A DNA stretch of 60,815 nt, filler included, from Jimgerdemannia flammicorona (GCA_003990765.1; 3 parts of 3 records of this genome joined end to end with filler, not necessarily neighbours in it), one strand, 5' to 3'; shown: positions 1,601 to 37,693, counted from the first letter of the whole stretch. A program made the numbers and translations. The notes: a model not told the origin generated them from the letters alone.

Positions 1601-3088
1601 TGTAACGGTGATTCCAGAATGATAACATCAGTATAGGAGACAGTCTTTCCTTGCAAGCCACCAGATCGGAGCACAAGAAGATCATATGGCATATGAGATG
1701 AGTAATGGTGACCAACTATAAGTCATTGTGACCACAGTACAAGTATCCTGAAGAATATAAAAGAAGGATCAAGGAACTGCAGTAGCAGTAACCAATAAGA
1801 ACCACCAATCCCAAAATAGCTCAAAGACTTACTATAAATGAAATGCCTGCTATCTGCCAAACCTCAAGGTCAAGGAATCACCAAGGCATCTCATCCAAGG
1901 AAAAGATGTTCCAAGACATTAGAAGAGCCATGAGGACCCACTCAAGAAGGACTCCTAGTATCAACCTGGGTACTGCAGATCCCTATCACTTTATCCTCTA
2001 TTGCCATGAAATGGAAACAAGGATCACTATTGCTACTGAATGCCTCCAAATGTGGCAGGAGTATGAAATAGGAAACCTCCTCTGCCAGGAGTTCCCACAG
2101 GCCAGCACTCAAGAGCTACAAGATGTCACTCTCATAGATATACATGAAATAAGGATAGCTAAGAAGATCCATCAGATCTTCAGGTATGCACCATGGTTGA
2201 TCCCCAACTTGGAGTATGTTAGAGTCTCAGATTTCAGAGATCTGTCATTCTACCATATCAATGCACTAGAAGCCAGGGTGGCTACAGAAGGCCAGTCCAC
2301 TATCACTCTCAATAGTGATGAAGTAGAAGACTTCTGGCACCCCATCCTCCAGGACAACTCAGACCAATTCTTACAAGAGTTGATATCAGTATTCCAAGGC
2401 CCAAGTATCCAGGTTAGACCTACCCAAGACCCCACATTTGTTCCCTATTTTGTGGAAGAGAACCTCATCAGATCTCCTTATTCCCACCACTGCCGAACAT
2501 GATGACATCATCAGTGATGACATCATCCTGCACTATCGAAGGATGCGAAAATGACGAATTTATAGACCTCATCTCCTTCAAAGATATCCTGAACTCTGAT
2601 AATGAGGATGAAGCCCCCATGGTCCTGAACATTCTACTCTAAATCTCTTATTATACTGGATAATGCCAGTACTGGCATTTTGATGTATGTAATACTAAAT
2701 TATACCAGCACCAGCATTCTGATATGACACTGAATTATACCAGCATCCTAAACCTATACAACCATTAGTGCCAACCCTGGAACTTAGTAGTTTGAGTTAT
2801 TGGAATTTATATTTAGCTTTATATCTTAGCAACTATTGAATTATATTTTGTATAAATATCCCTCTTATTTTCTTTGAAATAAATTCAGTTCTGGTTTCAC
2901 TTATACACACTTCCTTGCAAGCAATCTAAGAGATAAAAAGACAGTTAAAGATAAGAAGTTTGAGGACTATAAGATCTTGGAAAGGTACTCCAATAAGAAC
3001 TTGCTTATAACAAACTTGAGTTAGTCTAAGAGATATACCTTGAAGAGAATCTGATATATTTAAAGAACTCAGCAACCACTATGTGACA
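1601..3088 (+). repeat. 5' LTR of Gypsy A (1488 bp)
   Basis: TGTAAC...GTGACA; colinear with 16689-18222. TATAAAA 1756, TATAAATA 2851, AATAAA 2878, ~35-bp tandem repeats at ~2665-2745. Confidence 0.95.
1843..2642 (+). pseudogene. LTR-encoded accessory ORF (family A, 5' copy), frameshifted by a 14-nt deletion near 2469
   Basis: 219-aa ORF 1843-2502. Comparison with the 3' LTR shows loss of AGACTGGAGAGCTC; restoring it extends the frame to PMVLNILL* at 2642. Confidence 0.8.
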
Positions 3089-3091
3089 ACT

Positions 3092-3102
3092 TGGTGCCCA
3101 TT
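3092..3102 (+). promoter_or_regulatory. Primer-binding site of Gypsy A (TGGTGCCCATT)
   Basis: 3 nt after the LTR end. TGG start is complementary to tRNA CCA; related element E has TGGTACCCATTG at 42902-42891 (minus). Cognate tRNA not determined. Confidence 0.7.
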
Positions 3103-3182
3103 TGCTGGTAATTCAAGATGAATCTCTCACTTTCAAGCTGAAAAATGAACAACTCCCACAACAACTACCCTGACTACAAGAG

Positions 3183-5245
3183 TGTAAGCATACAACCTCC
3201 AAGCCACCAAAATTACACATCACCCTCTGAACAAGCCACTGAAATCACACGCAACCTCTGAACAAATCTGGAAATCACCTGCTCGATCATGAAGCTGAGT
3301 CAATATGAAGTCACAGCACACAAAGCTGAGTCAATACGAAGTTACAAAACACAAGATTTACACATATGGAATCTTACCAATCAGGACCAAATGCATACAT
3401 ACTGAGCACCGAGATGCATTGAATCAGAGAACCAAAACAAACAAACAACCATAACTTCCAAACACACAAACATGATAACTGAGATCTATACCCATATACG
3501 CGCTGACATTTAGAATGCCATTGTCAACTGAGCTACACCCTCTCTGCCCCTCATGAATATCCCTAGTCTAGTACTCCTCTAATTTGTGGAAGCCCGATGG
3601 AATACCCTGAACATGCTTAGCAAGGCCCACCAAATTGGACAAATCTCAAGCTACTACCAGATCGGCCACCTCCTGGAAGACATGGTCGAATACCACCATG
3701 ATACAGACATTACCCAGATGTCTCAACACCAGAAGCTCATTATCCGCAAATATTGAGAACTCTTCTATGAGTACAGTACCATTATTCCCTGCCTCTGAGT
3801 TACTACCAGCAAAATGGTTGCTACCCTGTCCTATGGCCAAATCGATGACATGATACAAGAACTCAATCAGAAGTACCTCGAGTACATCAAAACTACAGAC
3901 AAAACCTTCCCACACCCCAATGATCACATCCTGCAAATGCCCCAAGTTGGATATGCCATGAAGGACATCTATGATATAATCCACTTCGATGAAGATGAAG
4001 CAGAAGACAATGATCCCTCTGATGCCGACATGACCTCTAGCCAAGAATCTCTGCCAACCCTGATCACTCTGCCAACCTTGCCAATGAACTTACAACAGTT
4101 CATAACTGCATATGAGACTTATTGGGACAATGATCACTGGCACGAATACTAACCTGCATTCACTCCCGATTACTTCAACTACAATGAAGAGACCGGAGAA
4201 CACAATCTGTACCTCCAGACAACCCTTGAGATCAAACCAACTACTCCACCACCTGAGTATGAGCGACATGAACCACTGCCGCCAGCTTACTACAATCCTG
4301 CAACTCATAGTGCTGTAACCTATAGAAGGTACACAGACAGTGAATTCAATGAAAGCGAAGACAATATACCCATCCTTCGTCTACCAACACCTTATCCAGC
4401 CTACAAGACAGATGATGCTATTCTGTGGGACAGAGACAAAGTCCCAATGTATTACTACCTCAGCGAATAAGGAGAAGTAATCCATGAACCACTCTTCCTA
4501 GATGACTACTTCATCAGAGACAATATCATTGATAGTGATATCATCAAGAACTACCCAGACAGTACCTAAACCCATAAATAGCCTAGCAGTCATAGTATAG
4601 TTAGATTAGCATTGTATGACGTAACTGTGAACTGACTCAGCAGTCAGATGATCTCTTGATATATCAGATCACACTTGTACTACATGACTACATTCTGACT
4701 CAGCAAGGCACTTAGTGCTACATCCATATCTAGCATAGTCCAGATAGCTCCTCACTAGTATAAATACCCCCTCCCCCAGACCTCAGAATCTCAGACCCAA
4801 ACACACAAGAACATTCCTGAATACTTCCCCATAATACCCCTTTACACAACTACTCCTAGTATAGCAATATCATGAATAGCAAATAAACCTATTTAATAAC
4901 CCACAAACCACTCTTAAGTAAATCCACTCCCTGTTAGGTCCCACTCCTAACTCTATTACGAAATTTCCTAATTGGGTATTGTCTGCAGCGATACACTAAT
5001 TCAACTAAGCTGGTCTTAGTTTCTTGAACTTCCTGAAATATGGAAAATCCTGAATATCCAGAACTAGTCCGAAAAAGGACTTTGGTTAAGATGTCAACCT
5101 GATCTTGAAATCAATAAGCATAGAGGACGTACTCTATATGAAATTGATCTTGACCATAAGAAAATGGTCTTCCAGAATATCTAGAACTTCCAGAAAACCT
5201 TCCCAGAACTACGTGATGGTTACTCTAAAAAGCAACCCTCTCACA
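3183..5245 (+). mobile_element. Solo LTR (2063 bp) of chromovirus family B inserted in the Gypsy A leader
   Basis: TGTAAG...CTCACA flanked by 5-bp TSD AAGAG (3178-3182, 5246-5250). Homologous to the minus-strand LTR at 35958-38022. Related element E lacks this block between PBS and gag. Confidence 0.92.
3472..4569 (+). pseudogene. LTR-encoded accessory ORF (family B), ~365 codons
   Basis: One uninterrupted frame MITEIYTHIR...KNYPDST* with 7 internal stops, all explicable as single transitions from CGA/CAA/TGG, and no frameshift. Lies upstream of TATAAATA at 4759. Confidence 0.8.
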
Positions 5246-5276: not shown

Positions 5277-8200
5277 ATGGAAATGTATCCCTCCACATTC
5301 TATGGATATACTACTGAAGAGTCAATCCTGACCTTTATTGAAGACTTTGAACAATTCGCCACCATACAAGCCCTTGGTGTGAATACACAATTGGCCCTTC
5401 TACCAGTCAGCCTCAGAGGATCTGCCAGAGATAAGTTCAATGCAGCCATCATTGCTGATGCTGGTGCAGCCAAACTTGCCAACATGAAGGCCTTCCTCAG
5501 AACAACATATTATACTGAAAATATCAAGCAAGCTCTCAAGGATCAACTCAATACTATCTGCTAGAGACTTAGTGAAGATCCGAACTCATTCTATATCTGA
5601 ATCTGCCACCAGATTGTCTTGGCTGGCTTTAATGACCACCTCAAGGAACAAATAGCAGATTCAACCTTCCTCAAAGGAGTTCACTCTGAAATTGCCCTAG
5701 CAATCTGGTCTACCCCAGCTGCACTGACTCTTGATCAGAAAGTGGTCTTTGTATAGAGATATTGCACTGCCGGACACCCTGCCGAACACTCAATGGAGAA
5801 AATAACTGGCATCAAGATAGAGCCATCAAAACTAACTAGTATCTTATCTGCTACAGTTGTAAACAGACAACCAACCCCATCTACCCCCAAGACTGCCAAA
5901 GCTGATCCAGTGGAAGAACTTGCCAAGCAGTTTACTGAGATGACTGCACACCTTGGTGATGTTGTTAGAGAAGTCTGAAGCATCAACAGGAGACCAGTGC
6001 AGAGATTTGCAGCTACTATAGAAGAACACAATATTACATGCTTCAGATGTGGAGAAGAAGGCCACTATGAAAAGAATTGTATAACCGAAATGAGATGCAA
6101 AGCCCAACCAAGCTATGCTAGCAGAACCAGAGAACAAACCAATACAGTAGTCATCAAGGAGATTGGTGACACTGATGATGAAGAATACTACAAGGAGCTC
6201 GAATTCTACCCTGCTACTGAAGGTACCAGAACCTGGTCCAAGCTCTATGACAAGAAGAGCAACAGCAAGCCAGTTGGAAGACCAAAGAAGACCCCAGCTA
6301 TTACTATTCAAAGCAAGACCCAACCTGAGGAGATTGATCAAGATATAGAGTTAGATGAAGCTGCCTGCCAAATCATTGAAGGCACTACTCCAGTCTCAGG
6401 AGAAAGAGAAAGCAAGAAGGAACAGAAGCTGCACAAGACCAAGATCCACCAGTATGATATCTATAAGGACCTTAAGGAACAGAAGGTCAATGCTACCTTT
6501 GGACAGCTAGCTGAAGTCCCTGCCTTCAGACAGTAGTTGAGAGTAGGACTTGCAACTATTGCCAAGAATCAAGAGTATAAGATTGTAGAAGCTCACAATG
6601 TATAGGAAGAATCCAAGAACTCAGGTGAAGAATCTGAAGACCAGCACAAGACATCAGCCTATACCCCATGTCAAATTGAAGACTGTATCTTTGATGCTAT
6701 TATTGATACCAGTGCTGGAGGATGCCTCATGAGCAAGAAGGCAATTGACTGCCTAGGTTGGGACATTGAAGAGTCCACCAAGATGGTCTATGTCACAGCA
6801 GATGATATATGAGCTACCCCACTTGGTAAAATCTGAGAAGTCCCCATCAAGATAGAAGGAGCTACCATCCTAGTAGATACATATGATTGTTACAAGCACT
6901 ATCAACTATGACATCCTCATTGGCAACCAATAGCTTCACAAGACCAAGGCCATCTTCCCAGAAGATGCAGATCAACTATAGAGGAAGAAAGATATGAGTC
7001 TCTATGAATGTCCACAAAGGAGTCCTACCAGACATGGAGGAAGGAGATGAAGAAGACACAGAGGTCTTCATGTACTTGGTGAATAAGAATAAGAACAAGA
7101 CACCCAAGCTCATGGATGAGCAGTGGTACAACAAGATCATCAATGGCTATGCACCTCAAGGAAGATGCCTCCATGGTAATAGGATGTACTGCTCTGATAA
7201 CCTGAATGACTACTAGTCCTATATCAGTGAAGTCAGGAAAATCTGCCAACAGAAACATGAGCAAGAAGCCACCAAAGCAAAAAGGAAAGCTGAAGAAGAT
7301 GACCAGCCTCCAGAGCTTCAGGCTGACAGTGACAATGAGGAGGAACAAGAATCAGACATCACCCTCAAAATCAAGAAGTTTTACCCTGAAGCCAAGATCC
7401 CAGAATACAAGGCTGAAGGAGCCATAGGAATGGACCTTGCCAGCATTCAATATGCTACCCTTGAACCACAGACCACCACCCTACTTGGCACTGGAATTGG
7501 AGTCAAGCTGCCAGAAAACCACACCAGAATTATTAAGACCAGAAGCAGTCTGGCCAAAAGTGAAATCTCAGTTGAAGGAGAAGTAATTGACCCTGATTAC
7601 ACTGGCAAGATCTTCCTCATAGTCAGGAATCACAACCCCACCACCTCATTCAAAGTTAAGAAGTATGACAGGATTGACCAGATGCTGATCTATGAAATCA
7701 AGAAGCCCAAGATCATAGAAGCCATCAAACTCATCAAGAGCAAGAGAGAAGAACAAGACTTTGAATCTACTAGAAGAGGAACCTATGCCACCACCAAGAT
7801 TACTAAACTCGAGCACAAGAAAGACAAGGATCAGAACAAGCACACATATACTATTGGAGAAAACTTTCCCCTAGAGGAACAACTTCTCAAGATCCTGCAT
7901 CAGAATGAAGGAGTACTTGCTATAGACTTTAGAGATATCTACAATCAAGAACTCAAGTACTACTATGAAGTTGACACTGATGATACCAAGCCCATTTATC
8001 AGAAAGCCAGACCCATACCACCTGCCTACAGAGAATGGCTGTGAGCAGAACTCAAGGAAATGGAAGAAGCTGGAATCATCAAGCAAGCTATCAGCCCCTG
8101 GGCTTCACCCATTGTTCTTGTCTTGAAGAAAGGAAGCAAGCCTGGAGAGTTTGCACTAAGACTCTGCATTGACTACAGGAAGCTCAATACCATCACCAAG

Positions 8201-10531
8201 AAGGATAGGCAGCCCTTGCCGAATATTTAAGAGATCCTTACCACCCTTGAAAGTAAAGCTAAATACTACACCACCTTGGATCTGTTCTCAGGCTTTCATC
8301 AGATTGGTCTTACTCAAGATGCCAGTGAGAAATCAGCCTTCATCACACCTAATACTACCTATATCTACCTGCAAATACCATTCGGAATGTGCAATGCCCC
8401 AGTAAGTTTCCAGTGAATGATGAACAAAGTCTTCAGCAACAAGATTGGAAAATGGCTCTTTGTCTATGTTGATGATATAATCATCTTCAGCAATACTGTA
8501 TGGGAATATGTCAATCATATACAGCTAGTCCTCAAGAAGCTCAAGGAGCATAGCCTCTACATCAAGCCCAAGAAATGCAAGTTTGCAGCTCAAGAAATCA
8601 CCTACCTAGGACACCTCATCAACCAGACCAGAATTCATACAGACTCTATGAATATTGAGGCTATTGCAGCCTACCTGAGACCCAGAACAACCACAGAAGT
8701 CCATGCCTTCCTTGGACTGGCCAACTACTATAGAAGGTTCATCAAAGGATACTCCAATATTATAGCACCTATCTATGAGCTACTGAAGAAAGAGACCAAA
8801 TTCAAATGGACCAAGGAGTACTAAGAAACCTTCAATGAACTCAAGACTAGGTTGATCCAAGCACCTATCCTCAGAAGACCAGATTGGAACCTAGAATTCA
8901 TCCTGTAGACAGATGCAAGTACTATAGGACTTGGAGCAGTCCTAACTCAGAAGAAAGATGGACATGAATATGTCATCTCCTATGCAAGCCAAGGTACCTG
9001 TGGAGCAGAACAGAACTACAAGTCATATAAGCTTGAATGCTTAGCAGTAGTCAGGGCAGTAGACAAGTTCCACTACTACTTAGCTGGGAAATACTTCACT
9101 ATTCAAACAGACCATTCCACCCTTGCCTAGCTATTCCAAACTCTGAACCCCAAAGGAATATATGCCAGATAGATCTACAGGCTGCAAGAGTATGACTGTA
9201 CTGTTGAGCACCACTCAGGAAAGACCAACACCAATGCTGATGTACTCTCAAGGATACCCTGAAACACCCCCATCAAGACTATTCAACATGAATAAGGAGC
9301 TATACTATGGATTAATTAGCTACCTTGGGCAGTGGAAGATGCCCAACCACCTCAAACCTGGATAATCACTATCATCAATCTGACTTGAAAACAGTTTGAA
9401 CTAGGCAACACTACACTCAGAAAAGGAGGAAAGCTAGTAATACCTAAACATAAGAAGTATCAAGTAATGAAGGAAGTACATAAGCAAGGACACCTAGGAG
9501 GAACCAACATATATGATAAGGCAAGAAGAACCATGTGGTGGCCCAAGATAGAAGAAGACCTGCACCAATTTGTCAAAAGGTGTGATAAGTGCCACAAACA
9601 GAAACAAGATCAGCAAGATCAGGCATCCGGGTCATCAAGAATTGAGCCTATCTCCTTCCACCACATTGCGATGGATATCATTGGACTACTACCAGTAATA
9701 CATCAGGAAACTGCTATATTATAGTTATTATAGACCTCTTCACCAAATGAATAGAGGCAGGAGCATTACAAGAAGCCAATATCCTTACTATAGCTGACTT
9801 CGTATATCAAGAAATCATCTACTGCTATAAGACACTGAAGCAAATCACAACAGACCACAGCACAGAATTTGTCAATGGATTCCATGAGATAATGTATCTG
9901 AAATACAAGATCCAGCACATCAAGACCACCACATACTACCCTAAGGAAATGGACAGACAGAGAGAATCAACAAGACCCTCAAGAACATTCTAGCGAAGAA
10001 CTCAGAGACATATGAGAATTGGGATAACTATCTCCCAACCACCCTCTCTGTCCTATGAGACATATGGTCACAGAGCACAAACTTCACCCCAAGAGAGCTG
10101 CTCTTTGGAGAAGAAGATTCGGATGGAACCCCAGCCATAAATCTAGATCTAACTTAGAGATGGGTTGATGTAGAAATCAGAAGACTACACCAAATCAGGA
10201 AGAAGGCTGAAGATTATATCACCAAGTCACAAGCACTGACAAGGAAGAATGCAAAAAAGAATCACAAGGCCCTAGAACCCATCCGAATTGGAGAAAAAGT
10301 CCTACTGTATTGAAATATAGTAGAAGCCTCATAGTTGTGAAAACTGGAGCCCAAATGAGAAGGACCCTTCTATATGCAAGATATCAAGGGAACTACCTTC
10401 TGGCTTAGAAAAGTCTCAGGGACTATACTGTCTACTACAGTATATAGGAACAGACTCAAGAAGTACTATGAACTTATATAAGAGAAGCAAAATGTGATAA
10501 CCACCTGCAAGGTTCTAGTCTGTGAATTATA
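5277..10531 (+). pseudogene. gag-pol of Gypsy A (Gag, CCHC knuckle, protease, dUTPase, RT, RNase H, integrase), degraded
   Basis: CFRCGEEGHYEKNC ~6037; DAIIDTSAG ~6693; SPWASPIVLV, IDYRKLN, PFGMCNAP and YVDD ~8090-8475; TDASTIGLGAVL ~8910; HLGG...WWP...CDKC and WEGPF integrase motifs. Confidence 0.92.
7370..7780 (+). pseudogene. dUTPase domain within Gypsy A pol
   Basis: GMDL, TGIGVKLP, RSSLA, VIDPDYTGKI, DRIDQM and R..QDFEST are the five trimeric dUTPase motifs (degenerate). Confidence 0.88.
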
Positions 10532-10883
10532 ACAGTATGTCCTATAACCAGCAGGCTATCTGTTTGGACCATTCTCTAAGAGATATGACACTGGCAACTA
10601 CTCATCCATGAGACTTTTGAAGTCAGAGAAGTTCGAACCATCAACTGATTGGTCGATCAGAATCAGACCCTTGCTCTATATGAAGGGAGTGATCCTTCAC
10701 TATTATACCAAAATACAAAGAGAAGATGCCAGTCCATAAATACCACTTTTCGACCCTTGCTAGAGGTTATGGGATCACACCTTTCTCTGGTAACATTCAG
10801 GTTACACAATCTTTTGGCAATACTTTCGACACAGTTTCTGGAGACAAGCTACTAGTATCATAGCAACCAATGAGATTCCTGAG

Positions 10884-12893
10884 GTGCATACTGGGCAGGG
10901 TGGCCCTGGAGCATTTGAATGGCAGCAAGTGAGAAGAGGCCCTAACTTGGGGGGAAGCATGAGGGGCCTGCTGGCAGAGGGCCGCAGTGGAGGAGGGGGC
11001 GGAGCTGGTGTCCAAGGATCTGGCAGAGCAAGCTTTGCAGAGAAGGTGAAGGGGGGTCAGCAGGGAGCTGGACTGGAGAGCTGGCTGAGGGGGGGGAAGG
11101 CGCTGGTGAGGGCTACCAGGCAGCAACCTCTTGGGGGTACCTCTCTGGAGGGCCTTAGGGGTAGAGCTGGGGGGGTAGCAGCTGGGGCAGGGACTGCTGA
11201 TGGGGGTGTGATGGGCAATCTGAAAAAAAATCTAGATGGGACTGCTGATGGTGAGCCAAGCAGTGGGAAGGGCACAAGGCCTAGGGACCTGGTGGATGAT
11301 GTAACAGGACTGGCGGAGGCTCTGTTACTCAAGAAGTCGATCTCAGAATATGCTGTCACGATGTGTTTCTGGGGCTTGGCGGTGATGGCAAAAATGGTTC
11401 TGGGGCTGATTGTGAAGCAGATGAGTGGGGCAGCATTGGTTAAGTTCCTGAAGGGCCTAGAAGGGGTGGAGGTGGAATTTGAAGAGGCTGGGCCACTGGA
11501 GGAGGCTTTGAAGACTGGGATGAAAGTGGGTGAAGTTTGTGTACTGATGGTGAGATGCCTGTGGTGGGACTCAAGAGTAGTGCAACTTCTGATAAAAGGA
11601 GTTCCCACTGTTACTGCTGTAGAGACAAGGAAGAGAGTCGAGGAGATTATGGCAGAGTATGGGGAGGTAGTTGATATTGGGTTCAGAGTGTGGGAAGGAA
11701 CCTCCCTCTGGACAGGAGATGTTGACATCAGAATTTGGCTGGCTGGACAGGAGGCTACTGGGAAGGCTCGGGACTGGCCCTCAGTGATGATGTGGAGGGC
11801 TATCTTGTGCAAGGTGATGAGAGTAAAAGAGAGTGAGGAGGAGGAGGAGGATTTGCTGGAGGCACTGAAGGAGTTGAGTGGGGCAGTTGAGAGGAGGGCA
11901 AAAGCATGGAAAGCATTTGAGGCAGTGATGCATCTTGAGGTGATTGGAGGAAAGTGAGTCTGCATCAACAAGGAGGTGTGGGAGAGGTCCCAAGGGTGTA
12001 GAAGGCAGAGGGAATTGTTGGCAAAAATGGGGGTAGAGGCGACAAGGAAGGCAGGTGATAGAGCAACTACCAGAGGTGCTGAGGTGAGTGTCTGGGCTGC
12101 TAGTAGTGGAAGGAATGAGGAGGGGGGGCAGGTGGAGGCTGTAAAGGTGCCGAGCAAGAACCTGTATGAAGATGGCATACTGGAGGTTTGGGAGGAAATC
12201 TGGGAGGATTCACCTTCACCCTCCCCCCTTATCAGAAGGGGTCCAGTAGCAAGAGATAGGGTGGTGGAGGATGTGCCGATGCACGGTGCTCAGCAGGTGC
12301 ACTTTGGAGTCCCAAATGTAGAGAAGGGGGGATTGGTAGAGGTGGCTGGGGAAGAGGAATTGGTGGATGTCCTGGAGGAGGGATGGAATGAGTCAGCAAG
12401 TGTGGGGGCTGATACTACGATGTTGGATGGAGGGAGGCCAGCGACTCCAGGAGGGAAGGAGGTAGGAAACTTGCTCTGGGTATGCCGGATGATGAACAAC
12501 TTGGCAGCAGAAGAGCTGGGAGAAGTCGACCTTCGAGTGATGAGTGATGAGCATTGGGCAAGGATCCTGCAAGGCAATGGAGTGGAGGCAGCATTGAAGA
12601 CAGAGATTCTGGCAGTATGCTTGGAGGAGGAGGGGTATGAGGTAGATAAGGAGGGGGAAGCTGTGCTGGCAATTGTGGCGAGTGAGAGAGCTGCCCACTA
12701 TTGGACTAAGAGGCATGGGCTGCAGCTCTGGCAGGAGGCTTGTTTAGAGTACCATGAGGAGTTTGAGGAAAAGGAGGATGGGGAGATGGCTGAAATCCTG
12801 GCTGAATTGGAGGCTAAGAGGATCAAAGAAGCTGAAGCTACTGCTGAGCGCAACCTGGACAGGGCACAGGAGGAAGTGGACATGGAGCAGTAG
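10884..12893 (+). pseudogene. LINE ORF1 (RRM-like region plus acidic/coiled tail), one internal TGA at 11955
   Basis: ORFs 10884-11957 and 11976-12893 are in the same frame; VQLLIKGVP...IMAEYGEVVDI...TGDVDIRI resembles the L1/Tx1 ORF1 RRM. Start codon uncertain. Confidence 0.75.
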
Positions 12894-12924
12894 AGGATGC
12901 ATCTGAAACTATATAATTTCTCTT

Positions 12925-25800: not shown

Positions 25801-28800
25801 AATGGGCAGAAGATGCCACCAACTTCATGGAAGCCCTAGACCCTACAGGAAGAGGAATCAACTATCTCCAAGACTCCTCTACTGGAGCCAGATGGCCACA
25901 CCTCAACCTTAGAACTTGGAGGCTCTCTGCTAGTGGAGCTTCAGCCTTAGGAAAGCCTGAAATCAGCAAGGATATTGTCCAGTATGCCCTGCTGCATCCC
26001 AAGGCCAAACCCCCGACCAAAGCCCACCCAGAGGACATAGGATATGATCTTCACAGTCTGGAGAATGAATCTATCAAGCCTGGAAAAACCTTCATGATCA
26101 GAACTGGATTAGCAATACAACCACCCCAAGGAGCTTACATCCAATTGACCTCAAGGTCTGGACTTGCCAGATAAGGAATAACTGTAGAAGGAGGAACTAT
26201 TGACCCAGGATATACAGGCGAAATCAAGGTTATCTTACACAATAGCAGTGCAGAATGGCACTGAATCATTAGAGGACAGAAGATTGCCCAAGCAGTCTTC
26301 ATGAAGGTCAAGACCCCACAATTACAAGAAGTCTCTGAATTGACTGAAGGGACAAGACAAGCCAAAGGATTTGGAAGCTCAGACAAAAAGGAAGTATATC
26401 TCCTTCAAGTCAGCCACCTCAAGAGGAATGTTCCCCTGCAAGTATACCACCAACCAGGTAAGCTACACAAGAATCTCATCCTGGAGCCTGGAGAACAAAC
26501 TACCTTCAAAATCTTTGCACCACCCAACCCCAGAAACATTTTCTTCAAACCCAAGGAAGATATCCCACACCTGGACATAGAGGGACATACATTCTTTGAC
26601 AAGATGAATCCAGTACACTCCCGAGCAACCAACCAAAGTTGGGAGACCATCATCTTGCCAAAAAGAACCATTATAGGACATCTGGTGCCTTTTCTCAACT
26701 GAACTCATAGGGAAGTTTATGAACTAAACCTATTGGGAAACAGCAAAAGGTCTCAGAAGAAAGGAAAGGCCCCTCTGTGACCCAGGAGACAGTGAAGCCT
26801 TCCACCAATATTGGAGAAGAATTGACACCTCAACAACAGCAACAACTACTAGAATTTCTCAACAAATATCAAGATATCTTCACCACTGATTATGGCAACC
26901 TGTCATACAACCCATCATATCACCACAGCATAAATTCAGGAAATGCAATACCCATCTGGCAGAAACTCTATAGAATACCCCATCACTTGAAAACATTCAA
27001 AAAGGAGCACATTTAAGAACTCTTAGACAATGGAGTCATCCGACCCTCTACTAGCCCCTGGGCCAGCCCTATACTTATTACAACCAAAGAAAGGAGGATG
27101 GAGACTTTGTGTGGATTACAGGAAACTCAATTCAGTCACTGAAAAGGATACCTATCCTTTGCCCAAATTGATGACCTTCTGGATCAGTTACAAGATGCCA
27201 GATACTTTAGCAGTATGGACCTCTTTGCAGAATTTCATGAGATTTCCATAGACCCTAAGGACATTCAAAAAACAGCCTTCCTTGCTCTAGAAAAACTGTT
27301 TGAGTACCTTCAAATACCCTTTGGACTTTCCAATGCACCCCCCACCTTCCAGAGGATGATGAATTCAGTCTATGCCCCCTTGATCCACTACTGCCTGATT
27401 GCATTCATGGACAATTCCAACATCTATTCAGTAAATTTTGAAGAACACCTGCACCACCTAGAGGAATTCTTCAAACTCACCCACAAGAACTACTTGAGAT
27501 TAAATGCAAAGAAATGCTACTTTGGGAAACAGAAACTTGAATTCCTTAGATTCATAGTTTCAAAAGAAGGAACCCATACAGACCCAAAGAAAACCAAGAA
27601 GATCAACAATTGGCCAGTACCCAAGACCCTGAAGGAAATACTATCATTCCTGATGCTAGTATCCTACTATAGAAGGTTTATCGAGAACTTTGCCCAAATT
27701 GCTGCCCCAATCCAAATCCTTCTCAAAAAAGGAGTACCATTCAAATGGACAGAATCATAAGAAAAAGTCTTCAAAGAACTCAAGAACTGCATAACTACAG
27801 TACCAGTCCTTGTATGCCCCAATCTACAGAAGCCATTCATCTTGTATACAGATGCTTCTAAAGATGGCCTCAGAGCAGTTCTAGTTCAAGAAGGACCCAA
27901 TCAACAGCATCATGTAATAGTTTATGCAAGCAGAGCTACCAATCAGCAGCAGAAGAACTATGGTAGCACCAAACTGGAATATCTTGCAGTTATATGGGTG
28001 GTTACTCTGTTCAAGCATTACCTCATTGGAAAAAGGTTCACCCTGATCACAGACCATGCAGCTCTCAAATAGCTATTCAACCACAAGGAACTCACTGGAA
28101 TCCTAGCCTGCTTGATTCTTATCCTTCAGGATTACAAAATCACCATCATCCACAAAGCAGGGAAAGCTCACAACAATATTGATATACTTTTCTGCCAGCC
28201 CCAATGAACCAGAAGAAGGGTGTTCCAAGGAACTACACTCTAAAGGAAGCTCCTCAGACCATCAAGGCACAAGAGATCTTATCTGAAAAGAACATCAGAA
28301 AGCCCACCAAGGACAGGCAAATGTAGAAGAGAAGCTGCGAACAACACACCAACATTGGCCCAAACTTAGAACATAAGTCTGGGACATACTCAAGAAATGT
28401 GACATCTGGCAGAAGTACCAAGGAAGGAAGAACTATCATGCACCACTGCAACCAATCACACCACCAGACAACATCTTTCAGAGATGGGGAATAGATGTAA
28501 TTGGACCTCTACCAGTTATACTAAGAAGAAACAAATATATCCTTATATTTGTAGAACATCTGACCAAGTGGCCAAAGGCTTTTCTAATGGAAATTGCAGA
28601 TGCTCTAACCATTGTAGGTCTTCTCCATGGATCACACTCAGATATGAATCCACAGAAGAACTCATCTCTGAGTGAGGCACAGAATTCATCAACAATATAA
28701 TTACAAGTTATACCTGAATTCACAAGATCCACCTCAAACAGACCACATCATATTACTCTCAGACCAATGGCATAACAGAAAGAATGAACCAGACCATCAA

Positions 28801-29269
28801 GAAAGAACTTACCTGAGTCAATCCTACTAATCAGGACCTCTACTTACCCAAGATCCTATGGGAAATTCAGAACACCCCTGCTACCTCCACCAGACAAAAG
28901 CCATTCGAAATGATGTTTGCCAAGAAGAACAGAATTTCTGACCATGAGAATCTTGGAGATCTCCTCAAGAAGGTAGAACAGTTATGTAATCAAGCCTGAG
29001 GTCAGATTATCAAAGCCCAAAAAAGACAAAAGAAGTATTATAATCAGAAACAGAAGGATCAGGTGATCAAGATTGGAGATCAAGTACTAGTTTGGAGAAG
29101 CATGATTGAAACAAATTTTGCCACCAAATTGGAACCTAAATGGGAAGGACCTTATCTTGTACATAACATCAGAGGAACTAGCATCTATTTAAGAAACATG
29201 GATGGATGAACCCTGAGAACACCAGTATACATCAATCATCTCAAACTATATCTTCCCTCTACACTATGA
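22813..29269 (+). pseudogene. gag-pol of Gypsy C, degraded
   Basis: PTFAGYPEEDPREFL (Gag); LTDTGAAV ~24367 (PR); GYDL, RSGLA, IDPGYTGEI, IAQ and GFGSS (dUTPase ~25975-26385); [11 protein letters not shown] and PFGLSNAP (RT); YTDASKDGL (RH); TNG..ERMN and WEGPY (INT). Confidence 0.92.
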
Positions 29270-29777
29270 GCCAAAGGGTTGATCAGTACCTCCAGACATT
29301 GGTCCTCAGCTCCTTCTAGGCCCTACCAGTTCCTCTACCCTAATTCAGCCAAGCTAATGGAAACTCCCTTCAGAAGATTCATGTTTACCAAGAAAATCTC
29401 ACCCTGACCAGATGCCTACTACAAGTCCACCAACTGCAGGTCTATTATGCAATTGGTGAACAATTGCAGAACCTTCCAGCCCCAGAGCAGACCTACATCA
29501 GGAACACCACAGGTCTGACCAGAAGAGACACTACTGCTGCAGACAACTGTATACCATTTACAAATGAAATGTCACAGCCCTGACACAGGCACAGTTCTCC
29601 CTGAATGACATTCAAGAAATGAACCCTATTACCTATTTGAGCCTCATCAATTCTGTCAAAATTCTATTCCCTTAAGAAGAAGAGTCTATAGAATAGAGTG
29701 ACCCTGGTACAGACAATGAAGATGATGGAACAGGTATAGATGCAGAAGCAGCTTATACTTATTGGGGTAATGACTGA
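29266..29777 (+). pseudogene. Accessory ORF between integrase and 3' LTR of Gypsy C (~170 codons)
   Basis: ATG overlaps the integrase TGA (ATGA). MSQRVDQYLQ...QVYYAIGEQL...RRDTTA/ARQLYTIY...YWGND* needs one 1-nt frameshift at ~29540; stops are transition-type. Confidence 0.7.
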
Positions 29778-29816
29778 AGAACAGCCTGGGACAGACTATC
29801 CTTCAGTTGGGGCTGA

Positions 29817-31178
29817 TGTAACAAACCAAAACATACCACCCGAATTATAACTTAGCCAGATGATGTGAACAATTAGCATACTTAACCAGATGATATAGAC
29901 TTACAGCATGACATGACTTTCAGTATATCATAGTTACTCATGCCTGCCATACTTATAATTAGCCAGACATACCAGAAAGGGTCTGTTTACCCATACTGAC
30001 TCTGTACACTGTACAGATCCTATACACCATACAGACTCTATATACATACCTGCTATAAGTAGTTAGCCACATAGCAACCAGATAGTAATCACAATGTATA
30101 AATTACCCCAGAGACAAGAGTGAATAAACCTCAGTCCAAATGGAAGTACAAATCAAAGAAGCCTCTAAAGATTGAGCATTGGTCACCTTATTCCCACTCC
30201 AGTCTACTTTCCAATACAAAGCTTGAAGATTTTGCCACCAAGTTTGAGTGAAGAACTTTGCCACCTTTGGAATTATTGGTATGCTTGCCAGACTAAGTCT
30301 GAAGAATCCAAGTTTGCTGCCAAAAGTTCTAGGAAGAACTTTGCTACCATTTTCAAGAAGTCTGCTGATTCTGGAGAATCTGCATCATTCACCATTTTCA
30401 AGTTATTCACTATATCCCCAGAAAGTCACCTTGCTCAAGCCAGTTTCTGACATAACTTCACAGTGATCCATTCACACAAATGAAGCCAGTCTCTGATGAA
30501 ACTTTGCCAAGAGTTCCTTTCCAGAAAGCCACCAGCACATTTCCCAGCCACTGATTTAAGAAGAATCTGTACCATAGTATTCCCAATTGAAGCTGCTGAT
30601 TCAGAAGAATCTGCACCACCTGAATATTATTCCCAGAAGAGCCTGATTCATGATATCTGAGTTGTTTATTCCTAGTGAGCCCAGTATAGAAGAACTCACC
30701 ACCAGTATAATTCCCAGTAAGAAGAATCTGTGATATTCAAGAACCCAGCCAATTTAGGAGAATCTGTACCAAATTGAGTTATCTGTCAGATTGCCAGATT
30801 GCACCACATAAGGAATCCACTCATGCTACATCAGATTGTCATGCAGAGATCATTGCGCTATACATTGATTATTATGCAGAAATTACATACTTTTGGAGAT
30901 CATCACACTACACATAAAATTCTACCAATTCCCAGATTAACCCAAGAAAGAAACCCATTCATACAAATCATCACTATACTCAGTGAACTATCTCAATCAG
31001 GAAATCAACATACAAATCACTCACAGATATCCAGTTTTGACTATTATACCACTAAATACCAAGGACCTCAGAAATCTTAGAACATTTTATTGCTTTTTGA
31101 CAAAGTAACTAGGGGCTCAAGCCAAACTACATCAACCCCCAATCTTGTAATTTGCTCCATTGAGCCAGGTACATTACA
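29817..31178 (+). repeat. 3' LTR of Gypsy C (1362 bp)
   Basis: TGTAAC...ATTACA, direct repeat of 20798-22254. Confidence 0.95.
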
Positions 31179-31443
31179 ATATATAGAGTTCTTACTTATA
31201 GTGGCTATCACTAAAGCTACATTTCTCAAGGCTCAGCCAATTATCCAAGTCAAGCTGCTGCCTTCTTGGGCACAGCCCTCTCTTGTACAAACAGAAGGAT
31301 CAGTAAGATATGACCCCTGTCTCTTCTACCAGGCAATGATCTGCCCCAGGACTACTAGGACCTTTGACCTTCAAATTATACTTACTATATCACTTAGACA
31401 TTATGGATAACTAATAATGAGATCATCTTTAGTAACCAAAGGA

Positions 31444-31933
31444 TAGTGTTCCCAATGAATTGAATTGAATCGAATTGGACCCAAATTAAATTCAATTCGA
31501 AAACTTCGAATCAAATTGAGACCCAATTCGATTCAAATCAATTTGAATTGAGGTCCAATTCGATTTGAGGTCCAATTTGAACTCTATTTTTAGAAATTAA
31601 ATAGCTCGATGAATACACATCCAAATTCAATGATCCGTAGCTTGCGAGATTCCTATTATATAGGGGAATCTAAAATGCTAAAGATCATTAAATTTGGACA
31701 TGTATTCGTCGAGTTATTACATTTCTAAAAATAGGTTTCAAATCAGACCCTCAATTTTATTTGAATTCGATTCAATTCAAACTCAATTTGATTTGAATTC
31801 GATTCAATTCAAACTCAATTTGAATTGAAAAATCCCCAATTTGATTTGATTTGAATGACCCTCAATTTGATTTAATTTGAATGACCCTCAATTTGATTTG
31901 ATTTGAATTGATTCAATTTGTTTGGGAGCACTA
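31444..31933. mobile_element. Non-autonomous hAT-type MITE (490 bp) inserted in the Gypsy D dUTPase
   Basis: TIRs TAGTGTTCCCAA / TTGGGAGCACTA; 8-bp TSD CCAAAGGA (31436-31443) / TCAAAGAA (31934-31941); subterminal GAATT/TTCGA-type short repeats. Confidence 0.85.
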
Positions 31934-34900
31934 TCAAAGAAATTACAGTAGAAGATAGAATCATTGATCATGACTATTGAGGTTTACTGAAGGTCATTAT
32001 TCATAACAATAGTAGGAGCTACTGAACCTTCAACCCTTGGAGGCTATCTGTCAAATTCTGTTCATCAAGACATTACAGCCTACCATTCCAGAGGTGAATC
32101 AACTAGATAGCACTAAGTGAGAACAAGGAGGTTTTGGAAGCACTAACAGGACTTCTTAACTACCACTCATTGCAGTCTACTTAGTAATAGTAGTTTAGTT
32201 CCACTAAATGAGACTACATATCTACTGCTCTATTTGAGCAAAAAAAGATATCCTCCTTTAATGATATCAACAAAGAAGCCTTAATATATATCTACCTACC
32301 TATAGATACAAATAATCTGATATTTGAACCATCAATAGAACTCTAAAAGAAGTATTATCTCCTCCTGGCTGAAGAATAAATCCTTAATTAAATATCATCA
32401 GTCCATATTCCAATTTGAAACCTAAGATTTAAAGTAGTAATAATTTCTAAAGAAACAGTAATGGGATATTTCAAACTACTAATAAACTTCTATGAGGAAG
32501 AAGTTTTGAATTTTTGGGAAATAGCAAGCTCTCTCTGGTAAAACTGATCATACTAGGAGTGAAGACTCAGCAATCAAAGCTATCAATATTGAGACAACTC
32601 TAACCAAGGATTAGTAATATCAGATACAGAAGTTGATAGAAGAATATAAAGATATATTTACTATCACATATAATAACTTTCCACTATATAAATATGGATA
32701 ATATGCTATATATACAGAAGATGTAAAACCAATCTAACAGTATCCTTACCAAACACTCTATAGATGAAATACTATAAAATAGAGTTATCAGACCCACATT
32801 AAGTCTCTGGGCTTCACCAGCAATCATAGTACCAAAGAAAGAAGGATGGGGACTAGTTGTAGACTTTAGAAAACTCAACAAGATTACTACAGAAGATGTC
32901 TATCCACTGATAAGAATTGATGACCTTCTCAATGTCTTTGATAAAGCCAAGTATATGACTACTACTGATCAGTTTCAAGGATTCCATATAATATCTATTA
33001 TCAAGAATGATATCTACAAGACAGCCTTCTTTATCAGATAAGGACAGTATGAATACCTCTGAATGCCATTTGAACTCTGCAATGCATCATCCTCATTCTA
33101 GTAAATGATGAATTATATCTACCAGACCTTATTGGAAGAAATGTGCTAGAGTATATAGATGATAAAATTATCTACTTTGAGATATATTAACAATACCTAT
33201 GAGACCTCTATAAAGTATTTGATACTATCTAAAATTCAGAACTCCAACTCAATATTAAGAAGTACTTCTTTGGAATACACTAAGTTAAATATCTGAGAAA
33301 TATGGTTTCAGCTCAAGAAATCCATATTGACTCATATAAGATAAAGAAAGTCAAGAATTATCCAACCCCTATCTCTATACTAAAAGGCCTATCTTTTCTC
33401 ATATTATCATCTTACTATTAGTGATTCATCACAAGATTTTCAGACAAGGCAGCTCCACTACATGATATTTCTAAAAAAGATCAACTATTTTACTAGAAGA
33501 AAGAATAGCAGAAGTCATTTGACCTTCTCAAGAAGGCCCTTACTGAAGCTTCTATTTTAGTGTGATCAGATTTTGACAAACCATTCATCTTGGCAACCAA
33601 TGTCTCTGCCCTTGGACTTGGATTAATCCTATCTCAGCTAGATGACCAGAAGAAAGAGCATATCATTAAGTAGGCTAGTAAGGCCACCAATGAGATATAA
33701 GCAAACTATGGAGCTACTAAGCTGGAATGTCTTGCAGTAGTATGAGCTATCGACCACTTTAGATACTACTTCTTAAAAAAGAGATTTATCCTTATCACTA
33801 ATCACCAAGCTCTACAATATTTGTTCAACAAACCAGAGCCCTCAGGAATCTTAATCAGATAGATCATGTCTCTGTAAGAATACTAGTTTACTATTATCTA
33901 TAAGAAAGGTGTCAAGAATTCTAATATTGATACTCTGTTAAGGATCCCAAGAACTCAACAAAAAGAAAAAGAGCCAGTACAAGAGAAGGCTACTTCTTAC
34001 TTATCTAAATAAACTAAGAACTGCACCTCACCCTCACCTAGAGCCTGTATTACAGGAGCTTCAAAAATAGAATTCAGCCAGCTCACAAGCTGTTTATTCA
34101 AGAAATTTCAAAAGGCAATAGTGAACTTTGGAGAGTAGAGAGTGATCAATATATCTGAGTTCCAAAAGAAAATGAAATACTAAAGATACTTATAACTAGC
34201 CATGATCAGAATATATACTGAGGAATTGGGGCAACTATTATAAGTATCAAGAAGAGATACTAATGCCCCAAAATGAGAAAACAATTTTCAATATATATTT
34301 AACAATATGATATCTATCAAAGATACTAATAGAAACCAACTATAAAGTACTATTAATACTAATCACAGTACTAGCTAGAGTCTTTCAAAGTCTATAAATA
34401 GACATTATTGATCCTTTATCAGTAATTAGTCAAGAAAGACACTATATCCTCACCATTGAAGATTATCTGACAAACTGGTCTAAAGTCTTTACCATTTTGA
34501 TTACTGATGCTCAGACAATCATTGAGATCTTATATGATAAAATTTTCAGCTGCCATAGTATCTCCAAGGAAGTCATCACTGACCAAGACTGTGAATTTAT
34601 CAACAAAGTCATGAAGACCTTTTAAGATCAAACTGTATCTATCAATAGCCTATTATCTATAAGTAAATAGACTTATTAAACAAATAAACTAGACTATCAA
34701 GCAAGGCCTCAGCAAAACTAGAGTTCAATTAAATGGGGAAATTTATCTTTCAGCAATTCTATTCAGTATCTGTACTTCAAAAGCAACCACTATCCAACAG
34801 ACCTCTTTCTATTTAGTATATAGCTAAGAAGCACAAGACTTTACTGAACCAATCTAGCTAAATTTCACAAAGCAAGTTACTGAAGAAATCACCCAGTTAT

Positions 34901-35803
34901 ACAATGTATGCCAATAAGTATGAGAATTTATTGCTAATATATAAGAATAATAAAAGAAACTATAAATGAAAAGCTGACTTTGAACCCCTGCTTAATGAAC
35001 AACAAGTCTTAGTATACTATACTATTATAATAGATAACTAGAGTGCCAAACTTGAACAAAATTGAGAAGAACTCTATCTAATATATTAAAGATTTATAAA
35101 CTACACTTACTAACTCAAGACCCTGGATAGAGTTATTCTCAAGACCAAGATATATTGCAACTATATAAGATCTTATTACTTAGTAGAAGAAAAATGCATT
35201 TAAACAACTCTATTCACTCTAGCTATGTTATCTCTATTAAAGAATGACAGATACTTTATCTGAAACTCAAAAAGCCAACAATGTTAGAACTATTCTCAAG
35301 TTTATCTATATAATAGATATTGCTATTAGAAATTGCCTCAGATTATAAAAATTACTATTTCTAATAGATTCAACCCCCCAGCCATAACAATGAGAGCCCT
35401 TGTCCTAGACAAGAATAACCAGTCCTCACAAATATACCAATAGTCTAAAAAAAAAGAACTAAGACCTACTATTCTTGTATAACTACTACTATCAAGGATT
35501 GCTCTAATTTTGGAAAGAGTGGATGTAATGACATCTTCAAAACCAGTGAAATCAGAATTCAGAAGACTGTCTTTACTTTATAAGCTACTAGTTATAAATT
35601 ATAACTCAATTATAACTCATTTTAATCATAAGATGATCTGCATCTGAACTCTAATGACTCAGGATGACTTTAGCAGTATACTACTACTAGTCAGATAACT
35701 CTACTCTCTGGACTAAAGCAGAAGATCATCAAGATATAAAAGAATCATTAAGAGAAAAAGTGCAAAACATCAACCACAAATAAGAGACTTACTACAAAAT
35801 AAA

Positions 35804-35963
35804 ATATCTGCTATCTACTGAACAGTAATGTCAAGGAGCCATATTAGTTCAAGAACAAATATTCACTAATCTCAAGAGGGCAATAAGGCTGTATATAAGG
35901 ACTCCTAGTCTGAAGCTCTATATAAGAGACCCCTATTACTATATTCTTAACTACCAACTGGAA
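35804..35963 (+). pseudogene. 5' part of the LTR-encoded accessory ORF in the Gypsy D LTR
   Basis: (ATA)SAIY*TVMSRSH/VQEQIFTNLKRAIRLYIRTPSLKLYIRDPYYYILNYQLE aligns with family A MPAICQTSRSRNH..VKERIFQDIRRAMRTHSRRTPSINLGTADPYHFILYCHEME. Truncated at the chromovirus LTR. Confidence 0.75.
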
Positions 35964-36619
35964 GGGTTTCTGGAAGTTTTAAATACTCTGGAAGACTGTT
36001 TCCTTTAAGGTCAAGATAAATTTCATATGGAGTATATTCTCTATACTTATTGATTTCAAGATTAGATTGATGTCTCAATTAAAGTCTTTTTTTGACCTAG
36101 TTCTGGATGTTCAGGAGTTTCTATATTTCAGAAAGTTTAAGAAACTAAGACTAGCTTAGTTGAATTGGCATATTGCTGCAGACAATATCCATTAGAAAAT
36201 TTTATAATTTAGTTAGAAGTGGGATCTAATGGGGTATAGATTTACTTAAGAGTGATTTGGGGGTTATGAAATAGGTTTTTTTACTATTTATGATATTACT
36301 ATACTAGGAGTAGTGTATGAAAAGATATTGTGGAGAAGTGTTTAGGAATCTGGGCTATCTTGTGTGTTCAAGTCTGTTTGAGTCTATTTAAGTCTAAGTT
36401 TCTGAGGTCTGGTGGAGTGAGTATTTATACTAATGAGAGGCTATCTGGACTATACTAAATATGGAAGTAGCACTTAGTGCTTTGCTGAGTTAGAATATAG
36501 TTATGTAATATAAGTGTGAACTAATATATCAAGAGACTGTCTGACTTCTGAGTCTGTATGCAGTTATATTATACAAGACTAATCTAACTATACTAATAAC
36601 TGCTAAGCTATCTATAGAT

Positions 36620-37693
36620 TTAGATACTATCTGGATATTCTACAATGAGGTCACCATTGATGATATCATCTCTAATGAAGTAGTCATCTAAGAAGAGTAG
36701 TTCTTGAATTATATCTCTTTATTTATTTATATAATAGTATGTTGGAACTATATCACTATCCTATAGAATAGTGTCATTTGTCTCATATGCTGAGTAGGGT
36801 ATCAGTTGGTGAAGGAGGGGTATATTATCTTTACTTTCATTGAATTTGCTATTTGTATACCTTCTATAGATAATGATACAATTAGTTGCAGAGTTGTAGT
36901 AGTCTGGCAGCTATGGTTCATTTCATTTATACTCAGAAGGTGGAGTTGTCAGTTCAATTTTGAGGGTTGTCTGGAGGTATAGGTTGTGTTCTCTAGACTC
37001 TTTATTGTAATTGAAGTAATTGGGTGTGAATGTAGATTGGTACTCATACTAGTGGTCATTATTCTAATAGATCTCATAGGTGATTATAAACTATTGTAAG
37101 GTCATTGATAAGGTCAGCAGAGCAATTAGGGCTAGCGGGGATTCTTGGCCAGAGATCATATTGGTATAAGAGAGATCAAACTAGATTATTTTGTAGATTT
37201 CCTTTATAGCATATCTAACTTGGGGCAATGGTAGAATATAGTTATTGAGATAGGAGGAAGATCTATCTGTGGTTTGAATATACTCAATATACTTGTGGTT
37301 AAGTTCTTATATCATACTATCAATTTGGCTATAAGATAGAGTGGTAACAATTTTAGTAGTAGTAACTCAGAGGTAGAAAATAAAGGTACTGTACTTATAA
37401 AAGAGTTCTCAGTATTTGCAAGTGATGAGATTCTAGTGTTGAGACATCTGGGTAACATCTGTATTATAGTGGCATTTAACCATATCTTCTAGAAGGCAGC
37501 TGATATGGTAGTAGCTTGAGATTTGTCCAATTTGGTAAACTTTGCTAAGCATGTTCAATGTATTCCATTGGACCTTTATGAAGTAGAGAGATATCAGGCT
37601 ATAGATATTTATAAGAGGTAGGAGAGGTGTGGCCTGGTTGATAATGGTATTCCAAATATCAGTGTGGATATAGTTGTAGATCTCAGTAGTCAT
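36620..37693 (-). pseudogene. Second copy of the family B LTR-encoded ORF
   Basis: MTTEIYNYIHTDIWNTIINQATPLLPL...QIGQISSYYHISCLLEDMV matches 3472-4569 and supplies W and Q where the other copy has stops. Confidence 0.75.

Follow-up and report, generated by a model that had tools for sequence, protein, structure and literature searches.

Genes that lie in the U3 region of a long terminal repeat (LTR), or overlap it, are known from retroviruses, with mouse mammary tumor virus (MMTV) sag, lentiviral nef and foamy-virus bel/bet as the examples. Open reading frames (ORFs) of another kind, such as ORF1 of the Ogre elements of legumes and orfC of walleye dermal sarcoma virus, are leader or upstream ORFs. 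Here we analyze a stretch of DNA of 60,815 nucleotides from Jimgerdemannia flammicorona (GCA_003990765.1; three parts joined end to end with filler), hereafter the window, in which Ty3/Gypsy retrotransposons carry long sense ORFs inside their LTRs: ORF A in a family whose pol includes a dUTPase (element A), and ORF B in a chromovirus. By position, the closest analogy to these ORFs would be a retroviral gene inside U3, for example MMTV sag. Both are sense ORFs in the LTR, hence present at both ends of the provirus, and both would be accessory genes, dispensable for reverse transcription itself. However, the host here is a Ty3/Gypsy retrotransposon, and neither the window pieces nor seven members of the A-type family correspond to a Pfam family. 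Also, retroviral U3 genes depend on spliced mRNA, whereas the ORF described here seemingly has a TATA box of its own. The Ogre and walleye virus ORFs are alike in being extra ORFs upstream of gag, and they would be the apt analogy if the upstream TATA box were the genomic promoter; nonetheless, they lie between the 5' LTR and gag, so that no duplicate exists at the 3' end.

By theme, the closest analogy would be the sharing of accessory ORFs among the LTR elements of bdelloid rotifers, for which the available part of the source describes extra ORFs common to unrelated retroelements (Rodriguez, Kenefick and Arkhipova 2017, PMC5408684). In that part of the source, the same type of accessory ORF is found in different lineages, with a dUTPase in most and a modular organization, which resembles the situation in the window. 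In contrast, the bdelloid ORF3s are placed there between pol and the 3' LTR and are not LTR-embedded, and they have folds recognizable as enzymatic or envelope-like (GDSL, DEDDy, env) and, reportedly, expression through spliced messages. Among fungi, elements of the type seen in the window are known from basidiomycetes. PosPlaTy3-5 of Postia placenta has a dUTPase between protease and reverse transcriptase (RT), and an "additional ORF with unknown function" is recorded for fungal Gypsy elements (Novikova et al. 2010, PMC2864245, in the part available); this additional ORF can be compared with those of the window by description only, its location and sequence not being stated in that text. Moreover, brtn is an extra antisense gene of the Boty-like Gypsy elements of Botrytis cinerea (Zhao et al. 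2011, as cited in PMC8365987). As that citation describes it, brtn is likewise an accessory gene of a fungal Gypsy element without an assigned function, but it is antisense and is not placed in the LTR, whereas the ORFs described here are sense and LTR-internal. In the literature covered, which is incomplete and leaves most subscription journals outside, no sense ORF inside a Gypsy LTR is described, fungal Gypsy elements included.

Our reading of the window, which we regard as fairly probable, is that a family of protein genes lies wholly inside Ty3/Gypsy LTRs, in sense orientation and with the ATG about 210–240 nt from the LTR start, and that its members here are ORF A, ORF B and an ORF of a further element, D. 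This LTR-embedded gene family is real, is apparently undescribed, and would occur in at least two deep Gypsy lineages, the dUTPase type (A, D) and the chromovirus (B). The earlier note on this DNA had already placed ORF A in an LTR and ORF B in a chromovirus LTR, and this placement is borne out: distinct Gypsy lineages, one of the dUTPase type and lacking a chromodomain, the other a chromovirus, have long sense ORFs within their LTRs. The peptides on which it relied are found at 2062 for A (second copy at 17150), 3652 for B and 29443 for C, the last with a change of frame near 29541, and its account of the host elements was also correct: A lies in an LTR, here seen with ATAG flanks, B in a chromovirus LTR, here seen with AAGAG flanks, and C before a 3' LTR.

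The two copies of the LTR of element A (LTR_A) are 88% identical, and both start with TG, end with CA and have ATAG flanks. A sequence similar to a primer-binding site (PBS), TGGTGCCC, follows the 5' LTR, and a polypurine tract stands ahead of the 3' LTR. ORF B is located in the LTR of the chromovirus, once in a solo LTR (LTR_B) nested in the leader of element A and once in a 3' LTR (LTR_B'), 75% identical to the first. The direct repeat AAGAG is found on either side of LTR_B, at 3178–3182 and 5246–5250, and public contigs join 3177 directly to 5246 (four in X1 and one in X3), with six letters that fit both sides; the joint carries the mark "between: not known". Upstream of LTR_B', a chromodomain is recognized at about 38485–38631 on the minus strand (Pfam Chromo, 1.5e-7), together with RT_RNaseH (2.3e-10). 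The placement of ORF B in a chromovirus LTR follows because the unit is AAGAG-flanked and runs from TG to CA, the contigs show the empty site, and the second copy lies behind a polypurine tract and a pol with a chromodomain. A candidate reading of ORF B as the leader ORF of element A was dropped in view of the empty-site joint, the AAGAG flanks and the chromovirus setting in which the second copy lies.

Both ORFs can be considered real genes because intact relatives exist in public data and the differences between relatives fall on the codon positions with a bias of 3>1>2. For ORF A, intact relatives (P0001–P0005) are 75–87% identical, and an exhaustive HMMER search over 1.84 billion representative proteins gives five clusters at E<=0.001, including the more distant P0007–P0009. 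Also, a scan of metagenome contigs with the A alignment finds one locus, L001, with an intact 291-codon relative of ORF A (43% protein identity). These database proteins and the L001 ORF (P0001–P0005, P0007–P0009, L001) are here called the A-type family. For ORF B, two intact partial relatives are found, P0010, with the N-terminal 128 aa (80% identical), and P0006, with the C-terminal 247 aa (65% identical); when metagenome contigs were scanned with the B alignment, 562 pattern stretches matched, of which 0 were relatives. Differences at codon positions 1, 2 and 3 amount to 93, 53 and 136 in 370 codons between B and B', the copy in LTR_B' (p 1e-8), and to 128, 96 and 159 in 261 codons between A and L001 (p 4e-4). 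This is the pattern expected for coding sequence under constraint. The two LTR_A copies, decayed after insertion, differ by 17, 24 and 21 (p 0.55). In the 5' copy of ORF A, the C-terminal end lies in another frame, at 2532–2639, and a profile hidden Markov model (HMM) of the A-type proteins, hereafter the A-HMM, gives 335.0 bits for this copy and 16.3 bits for the shifted tail. Contigs in two public runs, guessed to be RNA but possibly DNA, cover ORF A and parts of LTR_B.

The layout of the LTRs bears on how such a gene would be expressed. In both copies of LTR_A and in LTR_B, a second TATAAA is found 187–212 nt 3' of the stop and is followed by AATAAA, and B and B' share a conserved TATAAATA block. 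On the 5' side, TATAAAAG lies about 80 nt before the ATG in LTR_A, in LTR_D (the LTR of element D) and in L001, and a conserved AGACTTAC block stands directly before the ATG. These TATA and poly(A) signals point to a gene that is complete in itself within U3. The ORF would be a small gene with its own TATA box upstream and the main TATA/AATAAA pair of the LTR downstream, and the second TATA box would drive the genomic RNA, leaving R and U5 regions of 240–490 nt together. A length of 240–490 nt is the usual size of R plus U5 in LTR elements. Because the ORF would sit in U3 between TATA boxes, each LTR, solo LTRs included, may be a small transcription unit, with an mRNA of about 1.1–1.5 kb ending at the LTR poly(A) signal and made from any LTR, whether 5', 3' or solo. 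The encoded protein would act in trans for the element family, as we would guess in the role of a regulator or adaptor that combines a predicted helical targeting domain with an acidic effector tail.

Some features of the LTRs do not favor this layout. The promoter and poly(A) assignments are consensus hexamers alone (TATAAA, AATAAA), LTR_B has no TATAAA upstream of the ATG, and the AATAAA of B is AAAAAA in B'. The strongest form of the proposal, in which the LTRs of several fungal Ty3/Gypsy lineages are each a complete gene (TATA box, ORF of 270–390 codons and poly(A) signal) and yield a trans-acting, helical-plus-acidic protein from every LTR, is at present an unlikely one.

A different arrangement, in which the genomic RNA would have the ORF as its first cistron, located in R/U5 as a long leader ORF before gag and with the upstream TATA box as the only promoter, is rather improbable, although two observations favor it: the conservation of TATAAAAG before the ATG in LTR_A, LTR_D and L001, and the lack of a second TATAAA within the 284 nt after the L001 stop. 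However, this arrangement needs an R plus U5 of about 1300 nt and the translation of gag behind an 800-nt ORF. Also, the second TATAAA and AATAAA past the stop in LTR_A and LTR_B, with the block conserved between B and B', are more in line with a gene confined to U3, for which the second TATA box leaves R and U5 of usual size.

Concerning the relationship between the ORFs, the A-HMM was built from the eight database A-type proteins, window sequence excluded, and run against all six reading frames of the window, some 120,000 translated residues. For the shuffled controls, residues were permuted in blocks of 60, so that composition was retained locally. After the LTR_A copies, the top matches are ORF B (3442–3864, HMM positions 6–145, 6.3 bits, independent E-value (i-E) 0.0018) and element D (6.1 bits), all others being at or below −2.2 bits. 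None of 60 shuffled six-frame sets reaches 6.3 bits (maximum −0.8), and the reversed set gives −4.4. The N-terminal 157 aa of B alone score 17.1 bits, a value not attained in 1000 shuffles. Moreover, P0010, an independent and intact protein of the B type, scores 15.8 bits, and the highest of 3000 shuffles is 11.2. Profile-profile comparison with hhalign gives P 4.3e-4 for the A family against B alone (score 31.2, 150 shuffles peaking at 19.4) and P 4.5e-4 over 117 columns against P0010. In the reciprocal search, the best window matches of P0010 beyond B and B' are the two copies of ORF A, and MAFFT places P0010 in the same register with six invariant columns (Y, I, L, I, L, S).

The shared domain covers about 125 residues, which in ORF B are located near 3457–3867, and has the invariant pattern Y-x-I-x3-L ... 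I-[PA]-x-L ... L-S. Beyond it, motifs similar to D-[LI]-I-x-F occur in the acidic stretches: the A-type members have D-L-I-x-F motifs and a P-x-x-L-N-F ending, and the B type has an I-I-x-F-D stretch. Also the position is comparable, ORF B being sense, wholly inside the LTR and with its ATG at 209 nt, against 241 nt in LTR_A.

By the same profile and by LTR location, the third family that carries an A-like LTR ORF is element D, rather than element C. The N-terminus of the D ORF is found at about 35800–35993, downstream of the D integrase and behind TATAAAAG and the pre-ATG block. Residues 18–66 of P0002 match 35847–35993 on the plus strand (42% identity, tblastn E 3.5e-5), and the fragment obtains profile scores of 6.1 and 10.1 bits (i-E 2e-4). 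The ORF ends abruptly at the junction with the truncated chromovirus LTR. Identity in the shared domain is 16–23% between A and B and 42% between A and D, and in RT-RNaseH it is 36.6% between A and C and 37–43% between A and D; for RNaseH, A and the chromovirus share about 32% over 59 residues. The A-B and A-D ORF identities fit co-divergence as well as exchange between lineages.

The earlier note had claimed one domain common to A, B and C. For A and B the likeness is above chance window-wide, whereas C is at chance level. ORF C stops at the first base of the 3' LTR (29817) and so lies outside the LTR, and no frame of the region 29250–29816 stands out: per 188–189 codons, the stop counts are 8, 8 and 9, and the longest open run is 79 codons. 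Searched window-wide with its frames unjoined, C gives −2.5 bits (i-E 1.4) and −1.4 bits (i-E 0.72), against best scores of up to 4.8 bits in 40 shuffled sets. Comparisons with hhalign give P 0.012–0.067, the real score being reached by 1 of 100 shuffles, and BLASTP gives E 0.25–0.61. C is absent among the 12 best tblastn rows of P0010 and also of P0006, and neither a second copy of C nor any intact relative turned up. ORF C most likely falls outside the family and is probably decayed spacer or pol-tail sequence.

The alternative, that A, B and C all carry one domain, with C as a decayed member outside the LTR in an element whose polypurine tract is downstream of the ORF, is doubtful, although it has numerical support when the two frames are joined. 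In this form, the Smith-Waterman score is reached by 1 of 1000 shuffles for B-C and by 15 of 1000 for A-C, the A-HMM gives 5.4 bits (1/2000), and an HMM of A plus B gives 11.8 bits (0/2000, maximum 8.2). For the unjoined pieces under default gap costs, the score is equaled in 6 of 1000 shuffles for P0010-C1 and in 60 of 1000 for P0006-C2, C1 is the top window-wide match once the true members are set aside, and B and C have colinear blocks (YY.IG, IQE[LM]N..YL, an acidic run and TYW[DG]ND). Nonetheless, the frameshift was chosen by eye, and both it and the place were picked from some 120,000 translated residues; p values of 5e-4 or less are obtained only in the joined form and are uncorrected for this choice. 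Besides the chance-level unjoined score, the weak hhalign and BLASTP values, the absence from the tblastn rows, the equal stops in three frames and the lack of a relative, the second half of C lies in the integrase frame.

For A and B, not every comparison agrees. Of the profile-profile check that the earlier note had proposed among the three, the part with A against B alone stands (P 4.3e-4), and that against a three-row B alignment does not (P 0.26, probability 0.2%, non-significant). The best HH probabilities for A-B are 33–34%, BLASTP gives E 0.065, reciprocal single-sequence E-values are weak (0.13–0.25), and the Smith-Waterman score of P0002 against B is reached by 222 of 1000 shuffles. 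With the A-HMM, B' stays silent (−1.0 bits, a score equaled in 301 of 1000 shuffles), and in the alignment it departs by eye from B at several motif positions. Also, a B-family HMM of three close rows retrieves neither A nor C, and B and P0010 represent one lineage because they are 80% identical. All these points weigh against a common origin, which we nevertheless consider likely for the N-terminal domain of A and B. That A and B are instead two unrelated LTR-embedded genes, whose likeness would come from chance or from a shared A-rich, transition-decayed composition, is unlikely: the non-significant hhalign and Smith-Waterman values, the silence of B' and the low identity speak for it, but no composition-keeping shuffled set of the 60 comes within 7 bits of the real match, the decay-free P0010 gives the same alignment with its 15.8 bits, HMMER, hhalign and MAFFT converge on one register along about 120 columns, interrupted by a single small gap, and the two ORFs have matching places within their LTRs.

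The shared domain has no recognizable relative among known families. Queried with A, B and the two C pieces, Pfam returns 0 families at E<=1, so the resemblance to DUF1016-N/DUF3102 suggested by the earlier note finds no support; a second Pfam set, the seven A-type members, gives one noise match in one member (ATG5_HBR, E 0.13). No match is obtained among Protein Data Bank (PDB) sequences at E<=10, and a Foldseek comparison of a low-confidence model with the PDB gives none at E<=0.001 (best template modeling (TM) score 0.31). The A-HMM matches no gag or pol region of the window. A match to a known Gag or Env fragment, which the same note had named as a refuting result, is thus not obtained with Pfam, the PDB sequences, Foldseek or the window gag and pol regions. 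Two Atlas look-ups gave no usable lead (best feature score 0.83), the Atlas models having predicted local distance difference test (pLDDT) values of 0.35 and 0.39. AlphaFold2 predictions on 7-row and 9-row alignments are all-helical at residues 18–149, with mean pLDDT values of 49.2 and 60.1, respectively; this low confidence counts against relying on the fold, and a comparison of the folds of A and B is not meaningful because the models are too weak. The N-terminal domain that A and B most likely share is predicted to be helical and is followed by acidic, poorly ordered stretches.

If the proposal of a complete gene in every LTR were true, a protein would be made from thousands of solo LTRs, for example one that transactivates LTRs or suppresses host silencing, and the family would be the retrotransposon counterpart of retroviral regulatory genes, in the form of a protein family without known relatives. 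In that case, solo LTRs would be expressed genes and no longer inert scars. The family would then offer a handle on how fungal retrotransposons meet host silencing or drive their own transcription. Moreover, an accessory domain common to chromoviruses and dUTPase-type elements bears on the modularity of LTR elements. Such a family would be nearly invisible in annotations because repeat maskers and gene callers discard LTRs as non-coding. The sober reading, a gene family at a fixed place in long LTRs, is still useful for the annotation of fungal genomes rich in transposable elements.

Table 1. Features of the elements in the window that carry, or were proposed to carry, LTR-associated ORFs (window positions unless stated otherwise; aa, amino acids).
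Feature	Position	Strand	Details
5' LTR of element A (LTR_A)	1603..3089	+	1487 bp; TGTAAC start, TGACA end, ATAG adjoining; from repeat pair and termini
LTR_A, features in nt of the LTR			TATAAA 154, ATG 241, stop 1037, TATAAA 1249, AATAAA 1276, end 1487
LTR_A, signals	TATAAA 1756 and 2851; AATAAA 2878	+	
ORF A, 5' LTR copy, ~270 aa	1843..2639	+	ATG 241 nt into LTR_A; open to 2502 (236 codons)
PBS-like sequence of element A, TGGTGCCCATTTGCTGG	3092..3109	+	2 nt beyond 5' LTR; read directly
Solo LTR of chromovirus (LTR_B), nested in element A leader	3183..5245	+	2063 bp, TG..CA
LTR_B, features in nt of the LTR			ATG 209, stop 1390, TATAAA 1577, AATAAA 1700, of 2063
ORF B, ~390 codons, several transition-type stops	3391..4572	+	Candidate ATG 209 nt into LTR_B
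gag (CCHC) and pol of element A	5278..10470	+	dUTPase, RT, RNaseH, integrase
G-rich non-LTR retrotransposon, nested in element A after pol and before the 3' LTR	10750..16560 (limits approximate)	+	GC skew, RVT_1
3' LTR of element A	16691..18223	+	Polypurine tract AGGAGAAAGA just before; contains second ORF A copy
ORF A, 3' LTR copy	16931..17743	+	Single frame with stops; A-HMM 389.5 bits
Element C	20798..31169; LTRs 20798-22245, 29817-31169	+	gag, protease, dUTPase, RT, RNaseH; dUTPase 2.8e-25
"ORF C"	29323..29816	+	Between pol and 3' LTR of element C; 29323-29541 in one frame, 29541-29816 in the integrase-tail frame
Element D, 5'-truncated	31170..35958	+	dUTPase fragment, RT, RNaseH, integrase, putative 3' LTR start
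3' LTR of chromovirus (LTR_B')	35960..37991	-	Polypurine tract AAGAAGGGGAGAG before; cut ~42 nt short of end
ORF B'	37735..36623	-	In LTR_B'; 59.5% identical to B; many stops
Partial chromovirus pol	37992..40515	-	RNaseH, integrase zinc finger, chromodomain; runs into N stretch

Element A is recognized in Pfam by dUTPase (1.5e-19), RVT_1 (7.3e-31), RT_RNaseH_2 (7.5e-31), Integrase_H2C2 (2.2e-13), rve (4.9e-4) and zf-CCHC (0.001), its protease being recognized by eye only. Soil-metagenome contigs correspond to the empty-site form of its leader, in which the chromovirus solo LTR is missing, and on this basis element A has widespread relatives in public soil data. A further fragment of an A-like element is found on the minus strand at 42915–41830, with an LTR end, PBS, leader and a decayed gag start. 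Its LTR end, PBS and leader (42915–42840) are 85.5% identical to 3079–3154, the nested LTR_B is absent, and its own LTR is too diverged for detection by blastn.

Elements C and D represent a second and a third family of the dUTPase type, and no Chromo match is found in Pfam for elements A, C or D. A dUTPase is present in all three of these non-chromodomain Gypsy families, at 7390–7770 (A), 26000–26380 (C) and 31290–31450 (D); it lies between protease and RT in C, just upstream of RT in A and, as a fragment, upstream of RT in D. In the LTR of element C (LTR_C), one frame has fewer stops than the others. In the 3' copy (29817–31169) the counts are 16 against 25 and 28, and runs of 100 and 93 codons are open; the 5' copy (20798–22245) has 21 against 27 and 29. 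This low-stop frame has no profile match and may be what is left of an unrelated LTR ORF. Also, LTR_C contains a 59-nt tandem duplication at 21262–21415.

In the chromovirus, the RT is unreadable because the gap at 40516–40615 cuts pol. This gap and another at 20213–20312 look identical, each with 12 bases between two runs of 44 N.

The non-LTR element nested in element A has RVT_1 at 14726–15391 (1.2e-11) and a stretch similar to an endonuclease by eye. Between 10750 and 16560, its GC content is about 0.5 and the sense-strand GC skew rises to +0.47, an extreme strand bias, whereas the LTR elements around it are A-rich with a negative GC skew. A tail related to this element is found at the start of the window (53–197), 70% identical to 16034–16181. 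Farther on, an inverted repeat of about 1.2 kb (40616–41826 and 43915–45087) has arms 80% identical, the right one in GC-rich sequence, and no Pfam family is found in the three minus-strand frames. Between elements A and C lies a thioesterase-like ORF (19067–19843, minus strand). Finally, host genes at 46490–47857 (minus strand), 49897–50661 and 60315–60815 are compact with long exons, in keeping with a host that is probably a fungus, and correspond to an ARIH1-like RBR ubiquitin ligase (UBA_ARI1, RING, IBR), the GINS subunit PSF1 and a fragment of an MFS transporter.

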